This document shows, one piece after another, positions 4,456 through 49,158 of a stretch of 49,391 bases of DNA; within the stretch, counting starts at the first letter, position 1, and each line of letters opens with the position of its first letter. A program made the position numbers and the translations under genes. The stretch lies in the IMG/VR virus record IMGVR_UViG_3300030376_004391, positions 1-49,391 of that record; one strand, 5' to 3'. The DNA comes from a virus (taxonomy: Duplodnaviria; Caudoviricetes). The notes beneath the pieces are model-generated. The model made no database searches. It saw only the letters and a program-made list of their open reading frames with translations, and was not told where the DNA came from.

Positions 4456-4534
4456 TGTAGGACACTCCTATCAATAGAATATCAAATTTCTCGGATCGCC
4501 ACAGAAGGTTCTGAGAACAATGTATGATGAGTTG

Positions 4535-4665
4535 AGCAGATCCCCAAAGAGGTATGACCTCCTAGTCTTGGTGGTACAAAATTATGTGGTTTCTCCCTGC
4601 TTTGGGGATTGGAGCCGGTCGGACGTTGTTTCCAAAATCTCCGCCGACCGGCTCCTCCAGTTTCA
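4535..4665 (+). ncRNA. Candidate multi-target antisense small RNA
   Basis: -10 TATGAT at 4523-4528; stems 4540-4549/4600-4609 and 4611-4622/4644-4655; loops complementary to cassette leaders. Confidence 0.65.
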
Positions 4666-4669
4666 TCAA

Positions 4670-4836
4670 TTTCAATGTTTGGTGTTTTTTTGGGGCTGTT
4701 TTTGACGATTTTTGAGAAATTTCTTTGAGGTCAAAACCGTTGGATTCTAGGGCTTTTTGGGGATTCGGGAAAGAAATATCGTCAACTGGCGCTGAATGAG
4801 TTGCAAAGTTAGGTATTAGGGTCTATCTTTAAGGAC
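4670..4836 (+). promoter_or_regulatory. Cassette promoter C1
   Basis: CAATGTTT box, T-tracts, TTGCAA(4801)-17-TATCTT(4824), dyad TAGGTATTAGGGTCTA 4810-4825. Confidence 0.85.
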
Positions 4837-5355
4837 ATGGAAACAACCAAGGAGATCAACCAAATGATAAACGTAAACAACTACAAACTAGGCAAAGCAA
4901 AATTCATCAAGGCTTCAAGCCTTAAGACACTACGCCACCAAGTAACTTGCATGGCAAAAGTAATAACTGGATATAATTCAGAAACAGGAAATCCTGTATG
5001 GGAAGAAAAAACTGTTTGCGGTTGGGCAAGCAATGTTATCGCTACAGGACGAAGTGTGCAATTCTCACTAGTTGATGACAGAGGAAACCACAGAGGATTT
5101 GTAAGTAGCATCGGAGCCGAAACTGAAGTTTATGTTCAACACTCAAACATGTTCCCATTTGACCTCGTAGAAGAATTTCAAGCAAACGGTGAAAACGTAA
5201 AGCACTTTGACTGGGCATACGGAACCGAATGGCTAAACGTAAAATACACAACCGTATGGGGAGACTCCAAAATTGACCCACGAACCAAAGCCGGAAAGAA
5301 CGCTATCGCCGGACTAGAAGTTCCAACCTACGAAGAATACATCGCAACAATCTAA
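4837..5355 (+). CDS. Cassette 1 hypothetical protein (alternative RBS-led start 4864)
   Basis: METTKEINQM leader, A/C-rich coding strand. Confidence 0.8.
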   Translation: METTKEINQMINVNNYKLGKAKFIKASSLKTLRHQVTCMAKVITGYNSETGNPVWEEKTVCGWASNVIATGRSVQFSLVDDRGNHRGFVSSIGAETEVYVQHSNMFPFDLVEEFQANGENVKHFDWAYGTEWLNVKYTTVWGDSKIDPRTKAGKNAIAGLEVPTYEEYIATI

Positions 5356-5362
5356 GGCGACA

Positions 5363-5460
5363 GGGTTGAGCGGAGCGAGACCGCCACGAGGAGCGAGACC
5401 TCACAACTCACGACCGGACAATCCGGCAAACAAAACCACCAAGATCAAAAGGAGATCAAA
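5363..5460 (+). repeat. Structured intergenic repeat R1
   Basis: GGGTTG..CAACTC junction with two AGCGAGA-loop hairpins, CCGGA-CAA-TCCGG, ACCACCAAGATCAAAAGGAGATCAAA. Confidence 0.9.
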
Positions 5461-5799
5461 ATGGAAAATATAGAAATCACAAGATACTCAAAAGCATTTG
5501 ACGGAGCGGATTACAAAGACCGACACCTTCACATCTTCGCCAAAGGTGCGTATGTTACAGCAACGCAGTTGCAAGAAACAGAAGAAGTGTCAGACGTAAG
5601 AGTTAATGTAAACAAGGAAACGAAACTTTACTTTGCCTGCGGAACCAATGGAAGTCAAACTTTCCAATTCGGGAATGTAACAATTCGCTTGACATCGGAT
5701 CAGTTGGATCAGATGATCGCCAACCGTACTGATGTCACCGGAAAAAATTACATGGACTTGAAGGCTTTATATCCCGATGAGGAGATTGTCAGCGCATAA
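5461..5799 (+). CDS. Cassette 1 hypothetical protein
   Basis: Strong RBS supplied by R1. Confidence 0.8.
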   Translation: MENIEITRYSKAFDGADYKDRHLHIFAKGAYVTATQLQETEEVSDVRVNVNKETKLYFACGTNGSQTFQFGNVTIRLTSDQLDQMIANRTDVTGKNYMDLKALYPDEEIVSA

Positions 5800-5805
5800 T
5801 CAAAA

Positions 5806-5901
5806 GGACTGAGCGGTAAGACCGCCTCCGAGTTCACGACTCGGCAGTTCACGACCGGACAATCCGGCAAACAAAACCACCAAGATCAAAAGGAGATCAA
5901 A
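5806..5901 (+). repeat. Structured intergenic repeat R2
   Basis: GGACTG..CAGTTC; GCGG-TAAGA-CCGC; CCGAG-TTCACGA-CTCGG. Confidence 0.9.
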
Positions 5902-6090
5902 ATGAAAATCACAAAAGGAACAACAGTGGAACTAGTACACTCAGATCACTTCAATGGGATCATCGGGATTGGAACAAAAGGCGAAGTCCTTGAGGTCTAT
6001 GGAGATGGAAGCATCAACGTGAAATGGGAAAAAGGCGGAACGCTGTCATTGCTTCCACAACTCGGCGACTCATTCAAAGTCATCAACTAA
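5902..6090 (+). CDS. Small SH3-like beta protein (resembles DUF4314)
   Basis: GTTVELV..IGTKGEV....DGSINVKWEKGGTLSLLP..D pattern, recognised by eye. Confidence 0.6.
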   Translation: MKITKGTTVELVHSDHFNGIIGIGTKGEVLEVYGDGSINVKWEKGGTLSLLPQLGDSFKVIN

Positions 6091-6339
6091 TACAGACAAG
6101 AACACACTTGGTGGTGTGTTTCCATAGGGAAGTCCCCGACTTCGGTCGGGGGCTTTCTGCTTTCTGCCCTGATTCCACTCAACGAGATCAGCGAGCAGAG
6201 CATCAGCGCATTCTTCTTCCGTCAGAGGCTCCTCAGAGCCACACAGAGGCGTTCTAACGAGTTCTAAGCATGACCAACACCGGAAACCAGCGTCAGAGGT
6301 CCACGTCACGTCACAGCCGTCACAGCGGACAGCGGTCAC
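6070..6339 (-). CDS. Small Cys-rich (zinc-ribbon) protein; C-terminus runs through T1
   Basis: CDGC...CWSC, follows the lysis genes. Confidence 0.5.
   Translation of the reverse strand: MTAVRCDGCDVTWTSDAGFRCWSCLELVRTPLCGSEEPLTEEECADALLADLVEWNQGRKQKAPDRSRGLPYGNTPPSVFLSVLVDDFE
6130..6164 (+). terminator. Intrinsic terminator T1
   Basis: AAGTCCCCGAC-TTCG-GTCGGGGGCTT then TCTGCTTT; same family as T2 and T3. Confidence 0.85.
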
Positions 6340-16065: not shown

Positions 16066-16188
16066 TTTCAATGTTTTGTGTTTTTTGGCGCTCTTTTCAT
16101 GAAGATATTTATGGGGTCTGACCTGCGCTTTTGCAGATTTCTTTGTAGAACTTGCATGAAACTAGGTATTTATGCCTATTATGTACTT
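16066..16188 (+). promoter_or_regulatory. Cassette promoter C2
   Basis: CAATGTTT, CTGACCTGC 16118, TTGCAT-19-TATTAT, dyad 16163-16178. Confidence 0.85.
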
Positions 16189-16578
16189 ATGGAAACAACG
16201 ATCACAAAGGAGATCACAATGAGTAATCAAATTACAGTAAATGTAGAATGGCAAACAAGCGAAAACGGAATGTATTTCACCACCGTATTCGGAACAGTCA
16301 AGAAAACTTGGGAGCAAATAGTCGGACCGATCTTCGGCTTTGAAATCAAAGACAATGGCTGGGCAACTGGAGAACAAGCAATGCACTTTGCAGAAACCTT
16401 TTCAGTCAAGAGGTTCAGCGCTGACGAAAACGAAACAACCGTGATCGTGAACGCCGAGTACATAGGAACTGTTAATATCACCGCTTCTAGAGATCTAGTT
16501 CAAGTTTGGACTCAAAAGGATCTTGGACCTGTTGAGATACTCGGAAAAGTCTCATTCAGTGAGATTGTCGGCGAATAA
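16189..16578 (+). CDS. Cassette 2 hypothetical protein
   Basis: METTITKEITM leader. Confidence 0.8.
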   Translation: METTITKEITMSNQITVNVEWQTSENGMYFTTVFGTVKKTWEQIVGPIFGFEIKDNGWATGEQAMHFAETFSVKRFSADENETTVIVNAEYIGTVNITASRDLVQVWTQKDLGPVEILGKVSFSEIVGE

Positions 16579-16584
16579 TCAAAA

Positions 16585-16682
16585 GGGTTGAGAGGTAAGA
16601 CCTCCACCGGATTCACGATCCGGCAACTCACGACTCGGAACAATCCGAATCACAAAACCACCAAGATCAAAAGGAGATCAAA
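16585..16682 (+). repeat. Structured intergenic repeat R3
   Basis: GGGTTG..CAACTC; GAGG-TAAGA-CCTC; CCGGA-TTCACGA-TCCGG; TCGGA-ACAA-TCCGA. Confidence 0.9.
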
Positions 16683-17438
16683 ATGAAAACACTAAATAAA
16701 ATGAAATACCAATTCAAGAGTTGGTTCTACGCAGAAGAAGATCTAGCGAAAGCAATCAATCACTTAGGCGGAGCGGATTTCTTGAACCAAACACTGACAC
16801 CAGATCAGGAAGTTAAATACAACAAAGATGGATCAATCAAATGGAAGTACATGAGACAAAATCCTTACGCTTCATACAACAAACCAGCGCTTGATTCTTA
16901 TGACTGCCCAACCGGATATCAAGTCACTGTTGAGGTTTACGGTTCCTACGATCACAAAGCACCAATGGGAGACAGTAGAATCGGAATCACCACCGGACTT
17001 CAAGGAGTCAATGACGGATCTTTACTCCAAACCAGAATGACGAAAGAACTCACCGTAGTGATTCCAATGGAAGCACTCTCAGCCGGAACTGAGTTCAAGT
17101 TCCGTGAAGGTGAGAACCATGGTGTTGATGTTTATGTTGAACTCGGCAACGGAGACAAAGTTCTTCCGGTTGAATATGCACTCAACGTTCTCGCAGAGAC
17201 AGACAGTGACCTTGATGCGCTTCTCTCAAGCCAAGCCGATGAGAATGGTGTCATTGATACTGGTACACGTTGGACAATAGACACGGTGGAACTCGGCATC
17301 TCAATAGAAACTGGGTTCACAACCGCCAGCGGAGATTACAGATTGACACGCAGTTATGACTGCAACAAGAAATGCTGTTGGAAAGATGACCACAAGAACA
17401 TCAAAGAAGAACTCATCATTCTCGGTGACTTCTCTTAA
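16683..17438 (+). CDS. Cassette 2 hypothetical protein
   Basis: 251 aa ORF behind the R3 RBS. Confidence 0.8.
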   Translation: MKTLNKMKYQFKSWFYAEEDLAKAINHLGGADFLNQTLTPDQEVKYNKDGSIKWKYMRQNPYASYNKPALDSYDCPTGYQVTVEVYGSYDHKAPMGDSRIGITTGLQGVNDGSLLQTRMTKELTVVIPMEALSAGTEFKFREGENHGVDVYVELGNGDKVLPVEYALNVLAETDSDLDALLSSQADENGVIDTGTRWTIDTVELGISIETGFTTASGDYRLTRSYDCNKKCCWKDDHKNIKEELIILGDFS

Positions 17439-21935: not shown

Positions 21936-22886
21936 TTAAGAAGCAACGCAGTTGCTGAGGAAATAACCGAGAGCAGAACTCACGACTTTGTAATCCCATG
22001 CGGATTCAATTTCCACACGAGTTGCTCGTCGCTCTGGGAGTTCAAACTGGCTGATTGCTGTGTTGGTCCCTAGTCCCCCACCGACACCACTCCAGACCAT
22101 GTTGTAGCCTGCGGAAGGCATCATGAGTCCAGCGTTTGGTGCAACGTAGCAGACAAGAGCATCACGGTCTCCGATTTGACTGTAGGAAGCAGATGCACCT
22201 TCGTCAGCGGAGTTGAATGTACTCATCATAATCAGGACACGATCAAGTCCAAACAGTCTAGCGAGAAGATCCGCTGTGACTGAATCAGATGATGTGTATT
22301 TGATCCGATCAGTGATGTCGTCGTTGTCAACAAGATTTGAGAACACTTTGTATGACATGACCATTGTGTTTGCCATGTAACCGGTGTTGCTCAAAATTGT
22401 GTTCTTGGCGGTTTCAACGTCAGCGATTGGAGTTGAAGATGAAGCGCTCCAGAGTGTGGAAGGCGTTGCATCTGTGTCCCAAACTGAAGTCGTGAAACAG
22501 TTGGTCGCCCAGTCACGTTCTTGTTTGATTAACATTTGTTGTGATAGGAAACGAGTTGCGTCAGCCATTGGATCCAGCGGAGCGTCTGCGTTTGCCATGG
22601 TCAAGTGACCGATGTCTTTATGCAGAGCATAGTTAGTTGCTGAATATGTTGCTGTGCTGAGGCTGTAACCGGTTCCAGCGGATTCCGTACCATCGGCACG
22701 AGGTAACACTTGATCTCTGAAGAAGTCTGCTTGTGAGTAGACAAAGTATTTGTCGCTCTGCTTGTTCACATTGATCGTTGGAAACACTCGTGATGACACG
22801 AAAGCGTTTTGGTCCTGCATAAACGCAACACTCATTTGAGTGAGGATTGCGTCTATATGGACATCTTGTGAAGTTGGTTGTGGCAT
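21936..22886 (-). CDS. Major capsid protein
   Basis: 316 aa; HID..LT..SVA...FP...V.KQSDKY; position after scaffold and decoration genes. Confidence 0.85.
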   Translation of the reverse strand: MPQPTSQDVHIDAILTQMSVAFMQDQNAFVSSRVFPTINVNKQSDKYFVYSQADFFRDQVLPRADGTESAGTGYSLSTATYSATNYALHKDIGHLTMANADAPLDPMADATRFLSQQMLIKQERDWATNCFTTSVWDTDATPSTLWSASSSTPIADVETAKNTILSNTGYMANTMVMSYKVFSNLVDNDDITDRIKYTSSDSVTADLLARLFGLDRVLIMMSTFNSADEGASASYSQIGDRDALVCYVAPNAGLMMPSAGYNMVWSGVGGGLGTNTAISQFELPERRATRVEIESAWDYKVVSSALGYFLSNCVAS

Positions 22887-24211: not shown

Positions 24212-25483
24212 ATGGAAACAACGAAGGAAATCAACCAAATGGAAATCAACTCATATACCAAAACATGCGATCTTGAACTCGCCGTTCAAATCGCCAACAA
24301 AGCAGACCGCATCAACAAGCGTGCAGAGCGCAACGGTCTTACCGGACGCATCACAGTCACGACTGAGCCTGCTCCTTCACGCAAAGAACCAGTCCTCATC
24401 AAGATTGACAACGGATATCACAAAGAAATCATTCAGGTCAAAGACGCTGACGGAAACGACGTATTCAGAACGATTGAACGAGTTCACCTCAGCGTCGGAA
24501 TCTCAGGCGTGTTCACCATCGGTAATTTCACGCCAGTCGCTTTCGTTGAGTTCATACTCAATGAAGATGAAGAACCAGAGGCGATGATTCAATCAGTTGG
24601 AGATGTCCAAGTCCTTCGTGACGTTCACCCTTCCGACTGCGATCACTGTCACGCTCACCGCAACCGGAACTCAATCTGGGTTGTCGCTAACGAAGCCGGA
24701 GAACAATTCCATGTTGGCTCCACATGTGTTGCTGACTTCCTCGGAATTGATGCCTCTTACATCATCAAGGAATGGCAAACGATGGTCACCAATGTTGTTG
24801 ATGACTTCTCACAAGATCCAGAGGAGGACGAGAGCGGAAGATACTTCGGAGAAAGTGGAGAGTCACTCCTCACAGTTGTTCTCAAGAGCATCTACGCAAT
24901 GATGGTCCAAGGACAGTACGTCAGCGCCAAGAACGCTACAGATGAAAAGAAGTCAACCAGACAACTCGTTGAATCTGAAGGCACAGATATCCTCCACGAA
25001 CTTGAGGAAGAAGTTGACCACGAAATGATCGTCACCTTCGCAGTTGAAGCGATCAACTACTGGAAGAACATTGAAGTCACCAACGACTTTGAGCGCAACC
25101 TCAACACACTCGCTCGCAACGCTGAGAACTATGAGTCAAAGTTCGCTGGGTTCGCCTGCTACATGGCTGAGGGATTCCGCAGAGAGTTCGTCAAGTTCAT
25201 TGAAATGGCAAACAGCCAAGCAGAGCGATCAGAGATCCCTGCTGAACTCACCAACGGACAACGCCACGAGATCTCCGGAACGGTTCTCTCAGTCAAGAAC
25301 ACATTCTCATATGGCAACGAGGTCATCAAGATGAGAGTTGAAGATGACCGAGGATTCGTTGTCTGGGGAACCAACACCATGAACGCTGAAGTCGGTGACC
25401 GAGTTACCTTCACCGCCACAGTTTGCAAGTCAGACAATGATCCAACATTCGGATTCTTCAAACGACCAAAGGTGGTGTCATAA
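24212..25483 (+). CDS. Cassette 3 protein with zinc-finger-like and C-terminal OB-fold-like regions
   Basis: CDHC...VGSTC; ISGTVLSVK...VGDRVTFTATV. Confidence 0.75.
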   Translation: METTKEINQMEINSYTKTCDLELAVQIANKADRINKRAERNGLTGRITVTTEPAPSRKEPVLIKIDNGYHKEIIQVKDADGNDVFRTIERVHLSVGISGVFTIGNFTPVAFVEFILNEDEEPEAMIQSVGDVQVLRDVHPSDCDHCHAHRNRNSIWVVANEAGEQFHVGSTCVADFLGIDASYIIKEWQTMVTNVVDDFSQDPEEDESGRYFGESGESLLTVVLKSIYAMMVQGQYVSAKNATDEKKSTRQLVESEGTDILHELEEEVDHEMIVTFAVEAINYWKNIEVTNDFERNLNTLARNAENYESKFAGFACYMAEGFRREFVKFIEMANSQAERSEIPAELTNGQRHEISGTVLSVKNTFSYGNEVIKMRVEDDRGFVVWGTNTMNAEVGDRVTFTATVCKSDNDPTFGFFKRPKVVS

Positions 25484-35469: not shown

Positions 35470-35721
35470 TCAGATCTTGAATACAACGTGAAGTCGGAAA
35501 GCGAGTTCTGATGCTTCCATATCTGCTTGTGTAAGTTCGTTACTCGTTCCGCCTGTCAAGAATGCGTTTCGGATTTCTTCCATGTTGTCCTCACGGATTT
35601 TGTTGATGGTTGCTTTTCCGATGATTGCTTCCTCTTTGCTGTTTGTGTATCTGAAAGTTTTGATTGCTTCGTTGAGTTGTGCTGTTGTGTTCATTTGGTT
35701 GATCTCCTTGGTTGTTTCCAT
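35470..35721 (-). CDS. Cassette 4 hypothetical protein
   Basis: METTKEINQM leader. Confidence 0.75.
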   Translation of the reverse strand: METTKEINQMNTTAQLNEAIKTFRYTNSKEEAIIGKATINKIREDNMEEIRNAFLTGGTSNELTQADMEASELAFRLHVVFKI

Positions 35722-36422: not shown

Positions 36423-36992
36423 CTATCTGTTGGTCGTTCCTTGACGAGCCACAACGAACTCATCAACTGGCAATGTCATCGCTTCACCGAATCCATCAAG
36501 ATTGACTTTGACGTATCCGTTCTCGTAACACTCAACGACGTATCCTTGATCCTTCCGTGTTCCTTTGCATCGCTTGAGTTGGACATACACGTTGGTCCCA
36601 GACTTCAGGATCCGTTGTCCTTCTCGGCGGATCTCTTTGACCGGCTCGCCGATGTCACTGTCATCAATCACGATGACTTCTTCTTCCTGCTGACTCCATT
36701 GAAGACAACCATCAATCCATTCGTCTTGAATTGATTTGAACTCTGGACTGAACCGATGATGACCAAGCACATCATTCAATCGTTGAGTCGCTTTGCTCTC
36801 GCCCATGGTCGCCTTCTGCTGATGCCAAGTCTCCAAGGCTGTGAGCAGTCGGTCAATGAGGTCAAGCGATGACGTTGCTTTCCATGGCACGAGGTTCGGA
36901 TCAGTGATTCCGAGATCGCTCATGATCTGGTCGTAGCCTTCGCAGTAGATCCTTTGCCTGATCTGTTCTGTTGGTACTTTGATTAATTTCAT
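36423..36992 (-). CDS. Hypothetical protein
   Basis: Leader ACCACCAAGACCGCAAGGAGGTCAAAATG, same class as repeat R4. Confidence 0.75.
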   Translation of the reverse strand: MKLIKVPTEQIRQRIYCEGYDQIMSDLGITDPNLVPWKATSSLDLIDRLLTALETWHQQKATMGESKATQRLNDVLGHHRFSPEFKSIQDEWIDGCLQWSQQEEEVIVIDDSDIGEPVKEIRREGQRILKSGTNVYVQLKRCKGTRKDQGYVVECYENGYVKVNLDGFGEAMTLPVDEFVVARQGTTNR

Positions 36993-37023
36993 TTTGACCT
37001 CCTTGCGGTCTTGGTGGTGTCGC

Positions 37024-37212
37024 CTAAGCGAGTTTCTTTTGAATGCTGGTGAATGTGTTTAGTTGCCGAGCGAATAGTCCTTTGGGATTGTGCCTTCTGT
37101 TCTGCTTCGCTTTGGTGATGTTCCTCTCGTAGTATGCGATCCTCCCATCAACACATTTGGAGAGTGCTTCAAACTCTTTCTGTGTGAGTGTGATTGTGAT
37201 TTCTGTTTCCAT
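37024..37212 (-). CDS. Small hypothetical protein
   Basis: AGGAG RBS, starts ATGGAAACA. Confidence 0.7.
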   Translation of the reverse strand: METEITITLTQKEFEALSKCVDGRIAYYERNITKAKQNRRHNPKGLFARQLNTFTSIQKKLA

Positions 37213-37340
37213 ATTGAACTCCTGTTCGTCTAGGTGGTATTACCTAGTTTACACTACTGACATGAGTTTGCAAATCGTAATTTTTGGAGATGGACAAAAC
37301 CGCTGGTCAGAAAAAAAGCCAAAACGCTGTGACCAGCACT
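37213..37340 (-). promoter_or_regulatory. Variant cassette promoter C8
   Basis: TTGCAA..TAAACT; perfect dyad TAGGT-N6-ACCTA 37231-37246; inverted TGACCAGC boxes 37302-37309 and 37330-37337. Confidence 0.7.
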
Positions 37341-37805: not shown

Positions 37806-38057
37806 TCATCTGTCTGTGAGTTCATACCAGTCTGTCCATATTTCTTTCGGGTGTCTCCCCAGATTAGTCGCTAACCGGTCAGCGACGATCCATGATATTT
37901 CATTTCTGTATTTCAAACGCTTGTAATATCCGATAGAGATTCCCAACGCCAAGGATCGGCGTTCGTTGTCTTGTCCCCAGATGCCGTCTGGGACAGTGCT
38001 GTCCAGATACTCCTGCAATGGAGCAGTCGGAACCCAGTAACAGTTTCTAGGCATCAT
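37806..38057 (-). CDS. Small HTH-like DNA-binding protein
   Basis: ADRLATNLGRHPKEIW. Confidence 0.6.
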   Translation of the reverse strand: MMPRNCYWVPTAPLQEYLDSTVPDGIWGQDNERRSLALGISIGYYKRLKYRNEISWIVADRLATNLGRHPKEIWTDWYELTDR

Positions 38058-38269
38058 CGGCTCCGGCGATTGTGGATCACATTGTGAACCGTCTGTGGAT
38101 CAAGTTCGCATTCCTTGGCGATCTCTCTCTGGCTGACTCCGCTCTGGAAAAGTTCACGGAAAAGTTCACGGCGTTGGCTCGCCATGTCGCTCCGGATCTC
38201 AAGTTGCTTCGCCATGCCCTGCGTCAAGTCTTTCGCTTTCTTCATCATGGTTTCTGTTTGTTCAGTCAT
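38054..38269 (-). CDS. HTH DNA-binding protein
   Basis: GVSQREIAKECELDPQTVHNVI. Confidence 0.8.
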   Translation of the reverse strand: MTEQTETMMKKAKDLTQGMAKQLEIRSDMASQRRELFRELFQSGVSQREIAKECELDPQTVHNVIHNRRSR

Positions 38270-40204: not shown

Positions 40205-40477
40205 ATGGAAACAACACAAGGAGAAACCAAAATGACAAACATATACACATGCACATGTAACGTTGATAGTTCAAGAATAAAAATTGATTACGCTAAATTC
40301 ACAATAGATGCTCCATGGGAAGAACTTTGTGATTATTGTGCAAATGGTCTTGATGAGGTATTTGCACAAGTAGGACAAATGGAAGCCGAAGCAGTAGGTA
40401 GCGCTGTCCAAGGTGGTTTAAGTGTAAGCGATGCCAAACTTTATGTAGCGCAAGAACGACCAGTTGAAGATCTATAA
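40205..40477 (+). CDS. Cassette 5 small Cys-containing protein
   Basis: METTQGETKM leader; CTC..CDYC. Confidence 0.75.
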   Translation: METTQGETKMTNIYTCTCNVDSSRIKIDYAKFTIDAPWEELCDYCANGLDEVFAQVGQMEAEAVGSAVQGGLSVSDAKLYVAQERPVEDL

Positions 40478-41716: not shown

Positions 41717-42529
41717 TCACAGACGCTCCTGAAGGATTTCGTTGATCGCTCCCCAAGATGGACCGGATTCGGTCGGCGCTCCTTCTTGAGCCATGTCTCG
41801 GAAGTACTCAATCTTTGAAGCGTCTCTCAGGAGCAGACCGAGATCGTTGTAGACCTTGTTTTGATCGTTGCGCCCTGAATGCCATGGAGAGTTCCGCCAA
41901 CCAACGACAGCCATCAACACATCTTGCTCCGAGTAATCCTTCAACGCATTCTCAATGAGGCGTTTGCGTTTGCTGTCTAACTTGGTTCTGTTCGGATTTT
42001 TCTTTGCTACCTCACACCAAGTTGAGAAAATTCTGTCCACGACTTCCTTCTGGTTAAGTTCCTTTTTAATAGTTAAAGGGGTGACAGATTGACCGCCCTC
42101 AAGGGTGACAATTTGACCGCCCTCGTGGGTGTCACTCTGACCGCCCTCTAGGGTGACAGTTTTGTCGCCCTCCCCGACAGGAATGTCCTCCTCCCAGACA
42201 GGAGCGTGGAGACAATAAAGATCCGAAGTCTGGCGACCGCTGTCAGTGATCCGTGGCGTGACCGTTATCAGCCCAGCCGAGATCAGTTCCTGCTTCGCTC
42301 TCTGGAGAGTCCTGCGACTCGTTCCCTCCGGCATCATCTCCTCCAGTCGGCGGTTAGATGGAAAGCATTCATGTTGAGCATTGGCAAACGATGCCAGCGC
42401 CAGCCACAACCTCAACGCCGTTCCTGATAGTGCTTTGCCTTCAGCGTTAGTCGCTCCGATCATTGCTGTCGGAACAATAACTAGTTTGTGCCCTTCCCAG
42501 TGTCTCACTGTTGAACTATTCTTGACCAT
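41717..42529 (-). CDS. Replication initiator (N-terminal HTH, internal iterons)
   Basis: CFPSNRRL...RRTLQRA..EL..AGLI; four 24-bp repeats. Confidence 0.8.
   Translation of the reverse strand: MVKNSSTVRHWEGHKLVIVPTAMIGATNAEGKALSGTALRLWLALASFANAQHECFPSNRRLEEMMPEGTSRRTLQRAKQELISAGLITVTPRITDSGRQTSDLYCLHAPVWEEDIPVGEGDKTVTLEGGQSDTHEGGQIVTLEGGQSVTPLTIKKELNQKEVVDRIFSTWCEVAKKNPNRTKLDSKRKRLIENALKDYSEQDVLMAVVGWRNSPWHSGRNDQNKVYNDLGLLLRDASKIEYFRDMAQEGAPTESGPSWGAINEILQERL
42079..42174. repeat. Four 24-bp iterons, probable replication origin
   Basis: GGGTG(A/T)CA..GCCCTC units at 42079, 42103, 42127, 42151 next to an AT-rich tract. Confidence 0.8.
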
Positions 42530-45051: not shown

Positions 45052-45143
45052 CAGATTCCTTCCTGTTTCATTTCTTGTGCCAGACTTTGGCACGACTCCC
45101 AGACTAAAACATGGCTGTGACATTCCTGTGGCGATTTCACCGA

Positions 45144-45266: not shown

Positions 45267-45788
45267 ATGGAAACAACGATCAACAAGGAGATCAACATGG
45301 AATACCAAGTCAAATTTGTAAAACAAGGAAACCAAGGATTCGTCTTTGAGTTTACCAACAAAGCAACAGGCGAATCATTTGAGGTTGCTCACACTTCACT
45401 CTCATGGTTGAGTGAGGACAAGACCAAGTTCGCAGACTTTATCCAAGCCAACCCAGACGTAATCTTTGACATCGTTCCAGCCGGAGACAAATACGATGAT
45501 GGCGTGGATCATTGCAGAAGGCTCATCAATGGCGCAAGGCTAGAACTTAAGATCCGAGCATATGATCTTGAGCCATGCGAACGAGTACGAGCCAAGGAAA
45601 TCATCAAAGCAGATCGTGAAGAAATGCTCATTGAACTCAAGTGGAAATACCAAAGAAGAAGCCACTACGCAATGGACAACCCAGTATCAACCACAGAGTT
45701 GAAAAAATGGGTCATGGACTGGACACACAGCATGAACAACGATCACTCACTAAAACTAGCCCTACAAGAAGCAGGCGAACTGTTCTAA
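45267..45788 (+). CDS. Cassette 6 hypothetical protein
   Basis: METTINKEINM leader. Confidence 0.8.
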   Translation: METTINKEINMEYQVKFVKQGNQGFVFEFTNKATGESFEVAHTSLSWLSEDKTKFADFIQANPDVIFDIVPAGDKYDDGVDHCRRLINGARLELKIRAYDLEPCERVRAKEIIKADREEMLIELKWKYQRRSHYAMDNPVSTTELKKWVMDWTHSMNNDHSLKLALQEAGELF

Positions 45789-45794
45789 CCAAAA

Positions 45795-45889
45795 GGACTG
45801 AGAGGTAACGCCTCCACCGAGTTCATGACTCGGCAGTTCACGACCGGACAATCCGGCAAACAAAACCACCAAGACCACAGGAGGTCAAC
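45795..45889 (+). repeat. Structured intergenic repeat R4
   Basis: GGACTG..CAGTTC; CCGAG-TTCATGA-CTCGG; ACCACCAAGACCACAGGAGGTCAAC. Confidence 0.9.
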
Positions 45890-46288
45890 ATGAAAGCATC
45901 AACCACTAATCGGAAAGTAGAGTACTCAATCAACGGCAGAGTTCTTGAATATCGGACTGTTGAGGAAGAAGCACAAGCAGTCCAAGAGGAGCGGAACAAT
46001 GTTGTTCGCTCAGACAGGCTCCGGCTTCAGAATTATGAAAACAGGATCCGTTACGTTGGAAGGAAAGACGACGACAAGGGACTCATTCAGATAGCGAATG
46101 CGATTGACAGCGCTATCCATTGGGAGTCATTTCCAAAAGGTTACACAGCGGATCAAGTTGCTGTCGCTCAGGAACTCCACATTGCTTCCAGAGGAACAGA
46201 CATCAACAACTTCATTGAGTCAGCCACGGACGAACTTCTCAAGGTCATGGTCCTCAAAGATATTGAAGAACTAAGGAGATCAAAATGA
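45890..46288 (+). CDS. Hypothetical protein
   Basis: RBS from R4. Confidence 0.8.
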   Translation: MKASTTNRKVEYSINGRVLEYRTVEEEAQAVQEERNNVVRSDRLRLQNYENRIRYVGRKDDDKGLIQIANAIDSAIHWESFPKGYTADQVAVAQELHIASRGTDINNFIESATDELLKVMVLKDIEELRRSK

Positions 46289-47986: not shown

Positions 47987-48781
47987 ATGGAAACAACACA
48001 AGGAGAAACCAAAATGAATCCACAAGAAATAGACACACAAATCCAAGACAAGAGAATTGAACTCGGCAAACTCTTTGACAAAGAGGGACGAACAATCCTC
48101 AGCGCAATCAATTCTCTCTCATGGGTCCGAGATCAATTTGATTCACGGACTGATGAACTCACCGAAGTTGGACAAGAACTTCGTGATGCTTTCTTCGGAA
48201 CTTACCGAGGCAATAATGCTGGATACTGGTTCCAAGTAAGTGGAAGTGACAGAGCCGGAGTTGTAAACGCAAAGATCCGAGCATTTGGAATTGTAGAAAA
48301 CAACAACCCAGAGGTCGTCTCAGAAAAACTTTCAGCCGTTCGTGCAGAGATCGCAGAACTTGAAGCAGAGATCGCAGAACTCAACGGATCATACACCGGC
48401 TGGACACGATGGGAACTCTGCCTCGGCGGACACCTCCACAAATGCACACAAGGCGCACGATGCCACAGTCTTGACAAAGGTGTCAGCGGACGAAGCATGA
48501 CAGCATGGTTGCCACAGTTCTCCGGAATGGAATGGACAGAAGTTGCTTCACAACTCGGAGACGCAACCGTAGTATGTTCACACTGTGTTCCAGAGGCTCC
48601 GGTTGAATACCACACCAAACGAGAAGAAGGAATCTGCGAAGGTTCACGACAATTTCCAGTCAAAGGCAAATCACGCCAAGGATACTACACAGGGAATTAT
48701 CACACTTGCCCAGTCTGCGAAAAGAAAATAGGCGGAAAAGGACAAATGGTTCGGAAGCACAAAGTCGGATCAGGGTACTGA
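47987..48781 (+). CDS. Cassette 7 protein, coiled coil plus Cys/His-rich C-terminus
   Basis: METTQGETKM leader; GGHLH..C, CSHC, CPVC. Confidence 0.8.
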   Translation: METTQGETKMNPQEIDTQIQDKRIELGKLFDKEGRTILSAINSLSWVRDQFDSRTDELTEVGQELRDAFFGTYRGNNAGYWFQVSGSDRAGVVNAKIRAFGIVENNNPEVVSEKLSAVRAEIAELEAEIAELNGSYTGWTRWELCLGGHLHKCTQGARCHSLDKGVSGRSMTAWLPQFSGMEWTEVASQLGDATVVCSHCVPEAPVEYHTKREEGICEGSRQFPVKGKSRQGYYTGNYHTCPVCEKKIGGKGQMVRKHKVGSGY

Positions 48782-48788
48782 TCCGACA

Positions 48789-48891
48789 GGGTTGAGAGGT
48801 AACGCCTCCTCCGGATTCACGATCCGGCAACTCACGACTCGGAGAACAATCTCCGAATCACAAATACCACCAAGATCAAAAGGAGATCAAA
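48789..48891 (+). repeat. Structured intergenic repeat R5
   Basis: GGGTTG..CAACTC; CCGGA-TTCACGA-TCCGG; TCGGAGA-ACAA-TCTCCGA. Confidence 0.9.
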
Positions 48892-49158
48892 ATGAGTTTA
48901 AGAAACTGGATATCAAATTCCAAGAAAACACAAATCAATGAAGAAGCAATCATAGTTTATTCAAGAGAAGGAAGCAGAGTCACAACCACTGTTTCTGATC
49001 TGGACAAAATCATGATTAAAGCAGATTCACGAAATGAAATCGGCTTTGTGGAAATAGCAATGCTTTCCACACAGCAAGACATCAAGGTCAATTTGTCTGA
49101 AGATCAAGTACGATTTCTCAGAGATAAATTTGACGAGGCTCTAAAGTACCATTTCTAA
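48892..49158 (+). CDS. Hypothetical protein
   Basis: RBS from R5. Confidence 0.75.
   Translation: MSLRNWISNSKKTQINEEAIIVYSREGSRVTTTVSDLDKIMIKADSRNEIGFVEIAMLSTQQDIKVNLSEDQVRFLRDKFDEALKYHF

Follow-up and report, generated by a model that had tools for sequence, protein, structure and literature searches.

A predicted two-hairpin antisense RNA complementary to the shared leaders of dispersed gene cassettes in a probable actinobacteriophage

Antisense RNAs of phages have so far been described, in the papers cited here, as acting at a single locus, and multi-target phage RNAs as Hfq-based regulators of mostly host genes. The C4 RNA of phages P1 and P7, which RNase P releases from a longer precursor and which folds into three stem-loops, is assigned a role in immunity (PMC5320573), and the CI RNA of phage P4 is reported to pair with two sequences, seqA and seqC, that flank it in its own transcript, causing termination (PMC4825925). 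PreS and VpdS are described as Hfq-dependent phage sRNAs that act in trans, mainly on host targets (bioRxiv 10.1101/2024.10.31.621285; PMC12197685). In cluster K mycobacteriophages, a private motif, the start-associated sequence (SAS/ESAS), precedes many non-structural genes and is tied to inverted-repeat promoters (PMC3203893, PMC11373665, PMC12699233); the original description left open whether its partner is an RNA or a protein and noted one reversed copy in four K1 phages (PMC3203893), and its role is still called unknown in a paper that maps the onset of late transcription to the interval separating genes 92 and 93 (PMC11373665). The PeSL of T4-like phages are described as repeated early-promoter cassettes that serve as exchange points for unrelated genes (PMC4122927).

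The locus analyzed here is located in a complete virus record of 49 kb with a 148-nt end repeat (the window, that is, the entire analyzed stretch of 49,391 nucleotides) and is predicted to encode a small RNA with two hairpins, the loops of which are complementary to two classes of leaders. As in the cited account of C4, this would be a structured phage RNA with two single-stranded seeds, one directed at the ribosome-binding site and the other upstream of it, and, as regards loop 2, with seed and target changing together, pairing in the present case being predicted; unlike C4 as described there, it consists of two tandem hairpins in all three variants (the window and the records L172 and L389 of a relative, hereinafter species B), has its own predicted promoter 7 nt upstream and faces 14 dispersed genes. 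No Rfam family matched the window at the gathering score, and no C4 match was found up to an E-value of 5 in L137 and L172. The likeness to the reported P4 CI, a small structured phage RNA pairing with more than one site, ends at the targets, which here are translation starts dispersed on both strands, the nearest cassette having its own promoter. With PreS and VpdS, to the extent that the cited reports describe them, the locus shares the scheme of one phage sRNA with many targets, but the targets here carry a purpose-kept shared tag. As in the published SAS, a repeated asymmetric motif stands just before the starts of non-structural genes; however, the leaders lack the consensus GGGATAGGAGCCC, the host is a different one, and two motif classes and a two-loop partner are present. 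The cassettes resemble PeSL in being repeated promoter units that exchange genes, but the abstract on PeSL names no antisense partner, and each of the cassettes described here is inserted singly between core genes, in most cases with the opposite orientation to these. The distinctive features are the two loops for two leader classes, the likely leaderless AUG as a target and the second promoter class. In the literature outside subscription papers, our searches revealed no phage RNA that targets a regulon defined by a common leader.

The window encodes siphovirus head, tail and lysis genes along with RecT, RusA, a replication initiator and two WhiB proteins; given the presence of the WhiB genes, the host appears to be an actinobacterium. 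Iteron-like 24-nt repeats within the replication initiator gene (42079-42172) are a likely origin. The 20 source runs listed are labelled marine, seawater or viral metagenomes; none is an RNA run, and they have no bearing on expression.

The two leader classes, class I (ATGGAAACAAC) and class II (ACCACCWAGA), are represented by seven copies each and together head 14 genes in eight operator-bearing cassettes (Table 1). The original prediction had counted about 13 genes and seven cassettes; the additional cassette promoter is the one at 37238, where the cassette starts with a class II leader. The leader copies precede mostly family-less genes, and our searches with the cassette proteins found no informative family. 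Each cassette includes one palindrome TAGGY-N6-RCCTA (seven exact copies and one with a single mismatch), likely an operator, which occurs in species B as well; in addition to the example in Table 1, palindrome/promoter copies are located at 16163, 24186, 35732, 37231, 40179, 45240 and 47961. At seven of the eight sigma-70-like cassette promoters, ATGGAAACAAC lies 7 nt past the -10 box. In all 11 distinct class I leaders from the window and its relatives, the 5' AUG shares its reading frame with the AUG led by a Shine-Dalgarno (SD) sequence (at a distance of 27, 30 or 33 nt), so leaderless initiation at the 5' AUG is likely; the sole leader seen without this AUG (L124) is out of frame.

Close relatives carry different genes at the same cassette slot (L166, L170 and others). 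Because these relatives swap genes between slots at the repeats, the identity of leaders on unrelated genes needs no RNA, and the original argument that an antisense RNA would explain this identity is weakened, gene swapping being sufficient. Five of the class II leaders are preceded by R elements (5356-5434, 5797-5875, 16576-16656, 45786-45864 and 48778-48865), with stacked helices and a TTCACGA loop that we take to resemble a tRNA acceptor stem and T arm; these elements are possible processing sites between cassette genes.

Table 1. Positions of the predicted RNA, its promoter class, the leaders and associated elements in the window
Feature	Position	Strand	Remarks
Predicted promoter of the RNA	4495..4528	+	ATCGCCAC (4495-4502), 20 nt, TATGAT (4523-4528)
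Predicted small RNA, two hairpins	4535..4660	+	5' end put 7 nt past the -10 box; 3' end approximate; ~125 nt
Hairpin 1	4540..4609	+	outer stem 4540-4549/4600-4609, 10 bp; inner helix weak, its G-U pair conserved
Class II leader seed	4555..4575	+	anti-SD TGACCTCCT plus GTCTTGGTGGT
GGAGAAACCA complement	4587..4596	+	minor, not conserved
Hairpin 2	4611..4655	+	12-bp stem 4611-4622/4644-4655
Loop 2 seeds	4624..4642	+	CGTTGTTTCCA (anti class I start) and ATCTCC
Second-class promoter	45101..45135	-	strict copy ahead of RecT/replication operon
Other second-class site	25487	+	spacing range of the sites N20-22
Other second-class site	46604	+	
Other second-class site	40074	-	one mismatch
Other second-class site	41700	-	one mismatch
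Example cassette promoter	4800..4829	+	TTGCAA-17-TATCTT; palindrome TAGGY-N6-RCCTA at 4810-4825, putative operator
Class I leader	4837..4866	+	AUG at probable +1, in frame with SD-led AUG
Class I leader	16189..16221	+	
Class I leader	24212..24241	+	
Class I leader	35692..35721	-	
Class I leader	40205..40234	+	
Class I leader	45267..45299	+	
Class I leader	47987..48016	+	
Class II leader	5435..5463	+	
Class II leader	5876..5904	+	
Class II leader	16657..16685	+	
Class II leader	45865..45892	+	strongest predicted target (-19.0)
Class II leader	48866..48894	+	
Class II leader	36990..37018	-	internal, without R element (-17.0)
Class II leader	37210..37238	-	at probable transcript start, overlaps palindrome
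Example R element	5797..5875	+	three-way junction RNA; 8/21 consensus pairs with compensatory changes
Second antisense element	6101..6125	+	hairpin with CTTGGTGGT and GTTTCCAT in adjacent cassette 3' UTR, before terminator

The locus is a real, conserved structured element. Both stems of the original prediction are exact, and the + strand of 4535-4665 folds at -57.6 kcal/mol (z -6.9), with none of 200 shuffled sequences being equally stable; the minus strand of the same segment folds at z -5.0. The two principal seeds were also confirmed. The seed GTTGTTTCCA in loop 2 is complementary over 10 nt to all seven class I leaders and over 11 nt to three of these, whereas the seed at 4565-4575 pairs over 10-11 nt with six of the seven class II leaders, with one mismatch at 37238; both halves of the latter seed are perfect at 45865/45879 and 37018/37003. 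Two more seeds that had been proposed add little: the complement at 4587-4596 does match 40220 and 48002, but none of the 14 cassette starts has its best site there and the relative has not retained it, and ATCTCC is indeed located at 4637-4642, but is only a hexamer. The opening cost is 3.6 kcal/mol for the loop 2 seed and 5.8-11.6 kcal/mol for the class II seed. Across the genome, a perfect 10-nt complement of each leader class occurs only at this locus, the leaders' own mirror strands aside. When stems of at least 9 bp enclosing a loop antisense to at least three start regions were sought in a blind scan, 3 of 12 stems passed, and the first two ranks were taken by the two hairpins of the locus, with seven and six start regions, respectively.

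Predicted pairing is strongly enriched at cassette starts over other genes, as the original prediction required. With energies that include the opening costs of both partners and were checked against constrained folding, the 14 cassette starts, a list partly defined by the leader motif itself, occupy ranks 1-12, 14 and 15 among 72 starts (mean -12.1 vs -4.5 kcal/mol, p 5e-9), the comparison set being 58 other starts that were chosen from the ORF list and may include wrong ones. None of 100 loop shuffles reached -12.1 (mean -4.4, best -10.6), and the opposite strand yielded -4.6. The site is absent in two cassette genes, 46285 (-3.7) and 49173 (-6.3), and one non-cassette start, 8086 (-10.1), takes rank 13, above two cassette starts. 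We consider it very likely that the RNA pairs with the leaders.

In class II, the predicted duplex extends over the SD sequence, and in class I, the best pairing site leaves it free. The latter observation, together with the two in-frame AUGs of all 11 distinct class I leaders and the fact that most seeds target what appear to be the first nucleotides of the transcripts, would fit a scenario in which the same pairing tunes the messages, by shielding their 5' ends from nucleases, by processing in conjunction with the R elements or by favouring initiation at the SD-led AUG over that at the 5' AUG. Given the coverage of the SD sequence in class II as well as in two relatives with hairpins of their own (G022 and G015, see below), such tuning appears rather improbable.

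The locus is identical (126 of 126 nt) in four close records, one of which is identical to the window throughout, and the region downstream of it differs by up to 6%; across eight runs, there is one change within the locus, at an unpaired base. In species B, which is approximately 70% identical, a homologue occupies the same genomic place and keeps the structure with compensatory stem changes: between L172 and the window, 11 of the 21 stem pairs are changed on both sides (5 of the 9 aligned pairs of hairpin 1 and 6 of the 12 of hairpin 2), and the 11-nt seed GTCTTGGTGGT is invariant in the window, L172 and L389. The true homologues comprise two species and three variants and thus few independent changes. 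The species B fragments do not overlap, were assigned to one species on the basis of their similar divergence and of the palindrome that they have in common, and miss the region of most cassettes.

These patterns bear on two alternatives in which no antisense RNA is involved. Pieces of leaders could have been inverted by the recombination that shuffles cassettes, leaving a DNA relic with no RNA role, a possibility that is brought to mind by the change of slots by cassette genes in close relatives and by a second, fused inverted copy at 6101-6125; yet the stems are fully compensated, the seeds are fixed, and separate lineages have the complement of their own leader inside hairpins, so that a relic is highly improbable. 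The 6101-6125 hairpin, which contains complements of both leader classes, is retained in close records and was not detected at the corresponding position in species B; it is possibly a self-feedback element or a relic. The second alternative, a small peptide gene corresponding to the ORF 4520-4705 (61 aa), is exceedingly improbable: the ORF is open in the same frame in the window and L172, with LVLVVQ common to both, but is frameshifted to 38 aa in L389 and interrupted by the stop T4585A in contigs of two runs, and its ATG belongs to the conserved context of the -10 box and lacks an SD sequence.

Because G-U pairs and U-tracts fit the + strand, the antisense strand is favoured as the RNA over the minus strand. 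The inner helix of hairpin 1 keeps a G-U pair and hairpin 2 of L389 has acquired a U-G wobble, both wobbles being possible on the + strand only; a U-tract follows stem 2 in species B, and the + strand is lower in energy in all three variants. A minus-strand RNA acting as a sponge, that is, a decoy for a leader-binding protein, would be in line with the good folding of this strand (see above) and with the GGA motifs in its loops. Nevertheless, this is very unlikely given the strand-specific wobbles, the conservation of promoter-like elements 5' of the + strand, and the presence, in species B, G022 and G015, of U-tracts after the antisense strand. In the window itself, the predicted T-rich stretch does follow the locus, but on its own is not evidence of a terminator in this genome because it is part of the D2 repeat that precedes cassette promoters. 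The D2 family (4661-4790 and other copies) is a phased T-rich stretch upstream of cassette promoters and has the opposite orientation at one species B promoter (L538).

The covariation of seeds and leaders that the original prediction called for was found in loop 2 as well as across G022 and G015 (see below), and not in the class II seed. The four cassette starts present in the species B fragments take the first four ranks among 22 starts for pairing with the species B RNA. Loop 2 of this RNA pairs with the cognate start TGGAAACCACTATTG over 14 bp with one bulge (-11.2, compared to -7.4 for the window RNA), and the class I leaders of the window are bound at only -6.9 by the species B RNA vs -10.8 by the window RNA. 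The predicted ATGGAAACCC promoter leader was not found in species B, but an internal cassette start did match. For class II, there is no species preference: the species B RNA binds the leaders of the window at -15.2, better than the window RNA does (-13.4), and the species B leaders are bound alike by both RNAs (-13.9 and -13.5). Given the invariant class II seed and the ability of each RNA to bind the class II leaders of the other species, at least as predicted, the RNA of a resident phage might silence the early cassettes of a later relative, in the manner of C4 and CI immunity, C4 belonging to an immunity system according to PMC5320573. However, no integrase or clear immunity repressor was detected among the 61 ORFs of the window that were scanned, and the promoter class of the RNA is common to replication operons, so exclusion is an unlikely primary explanation; it is, nonetheless, compatible with translational shut-off of the phage's own cassettes, the two roles not being exclusive.

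The reading that we prefer is translational shut-off. The TATGAT -10 box noted in the original prediction is upheld by the relatives: L172 and L389 have retained the upstream element, the spacing and the -10 box around a divergent spacer. The region upstream of the RNA is without the palindrome and matches ATCGCCAC-N20-21-TAnnnT, of which there are four strict copies in the window compared to 0.04 expected in shuffled sequences (maximum of 1 in 200 shuffles); looser copies precede the RusA/methylase operon and gene 41608. We infer that this second promoter class is the middle class, and, given that it is common to replication and recombination operons, the RNA would represent an early-to-middle off-switch.

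Under this scenario, the cassettes would fire first, from host sigma-A-type promoters, and a phage factor would then activate the ATCGCCAC-type promoters, including that of the RNA; a WhiB protein or the helix-turn-helix (HTH) protein at 38054-38269 would be a guess for this factor. In class I messages, the 5' AUG would be covered by loop 2; in class II messages, pairing would nucleate between ACCACCAAG and the UGGU loop at the apex of hairpin 1 and extend across the SD sequence. Ribosome loading would likely be blocked, such that translation of the likely-early set would stop together, perhaps with decay of the messages, and any gene that enters a cassette by recombination would come under this control as well. 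Judging from the sequence, middle-phase translational shut-off of the 14 cassette genes by the predicted RNA appears likely, under the assumption of repression rather than stabilisation. The HTH protein mentioned above (minus strand, 71 aa) shows weak matches to sigma-70 region 4 and is a candidate activator or repressor.

Four other complete records of the family were examined. One of these, G022 (72% identity in the capsid protein), has a different leader, GATGGGAAA, in five cassettes, and its antisense hairpin with a terminator (L548:16361-16480), the top of 2636 prefiltered segments, is predicted to bind the leaders of G022 at -12.4, compared to -3.1 to -5.5 for those of other phages. Another, G015 (71%), has an intergenic 17-bp hairpin followed by a U-tract (L552:2100-2190, about 22000-22090), the loop of which is antisense to this phage's own GAAAGGAGA ribosome sites. 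In both phages, the duplex would extend over the SD sequence; the two hairpins are neither syntenic nor alignable with the locus of the window. No antisense hairpin was detected by two scans in G017, which has shared ACCAAGGAG leaders, nor in G016, which shares sequence with G017. In G016 (L567-L571), the palindrome TGTACACTGTACA is repeated before several genes; the record repeats G017 sequence and may be a joined assembly.

Among less complete or more distant sequences, five fragments scanned yielded no antisense hairpin, G014 (25% complete) has class I leaders at two starts, its syntenic slot being devoid of the RNA, and no RNA was present at this slot among the listed sequences of the distant relatives inspected. 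A comparison of the locus with INPHARED phages, where all capsid relatives are below 60%, produced one chance match of 22 nt. The scan with the locus pattern returned at least 120 loci, with none homologous among the matches listed, and two further scans gave only the two known species; 76 genome matches to the pattern were judged from their titles to be due to chance. The metagenome scan returned at least 8 loci, with one new variant among the matches listed. The leader motifs in 50 records were level with controls (class I in 2 records, class II once each in 6).

A possible parallel in cultured phages is the cluster K SAS. In Adephagia (L563:33660-33715, between genes 92 and 93), the single reversed SAS is located close to the late start described there, within the apical loop of a hairpin that shows covariation. 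Of the 11 phages compared at that locus, five have the reversed SAS in the hairpin loop, three have an imperfect pyrimidine loop and three (Pixie, ShedlockHolmes and Marshawn) have a non-complementary one. Covariation of loop and SAS was not found, the SAS being unchanged in four of the six phages with a departing loop, the four that were checked; in ZoeJ, the stretch fetched contains no reversed SAS apart from a real gene start. The cluster K hairpin is a lead and not support for the reading proposed here.

More tentatively, and with some doubt, we propose a plug-and-play regulon in which accessory genes swapped by recombination are marked by fixed barcodes at their 5' ends. A single two-loop RNA, made from a middle promoter, would recognize two such barcodes, one of which is a leaderless start codon, and would shut the set off and silence incoming relatives; the same logic would account for the K1 SAS, with its one reversed copy in a hairpin loop at the onset of late transcription. 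If true, such a system would be an RNA-level timing switch inherited by any newly acquired gene, would offer a concrete candidate for what start-associated sequences do, with Adephagia in M. smegmatis as the cultured case, and would provide actinobacteria, which are not known to have Hfq, with a repressor design that is compact and probably independent of this protein. Apart from the locus itself, short matches to the stem junction of the RNA and an inverted match to its promoter region are found inside a gene for a 987-aa protein (2108-2130 and 2280-2308) and are probably due to chance.
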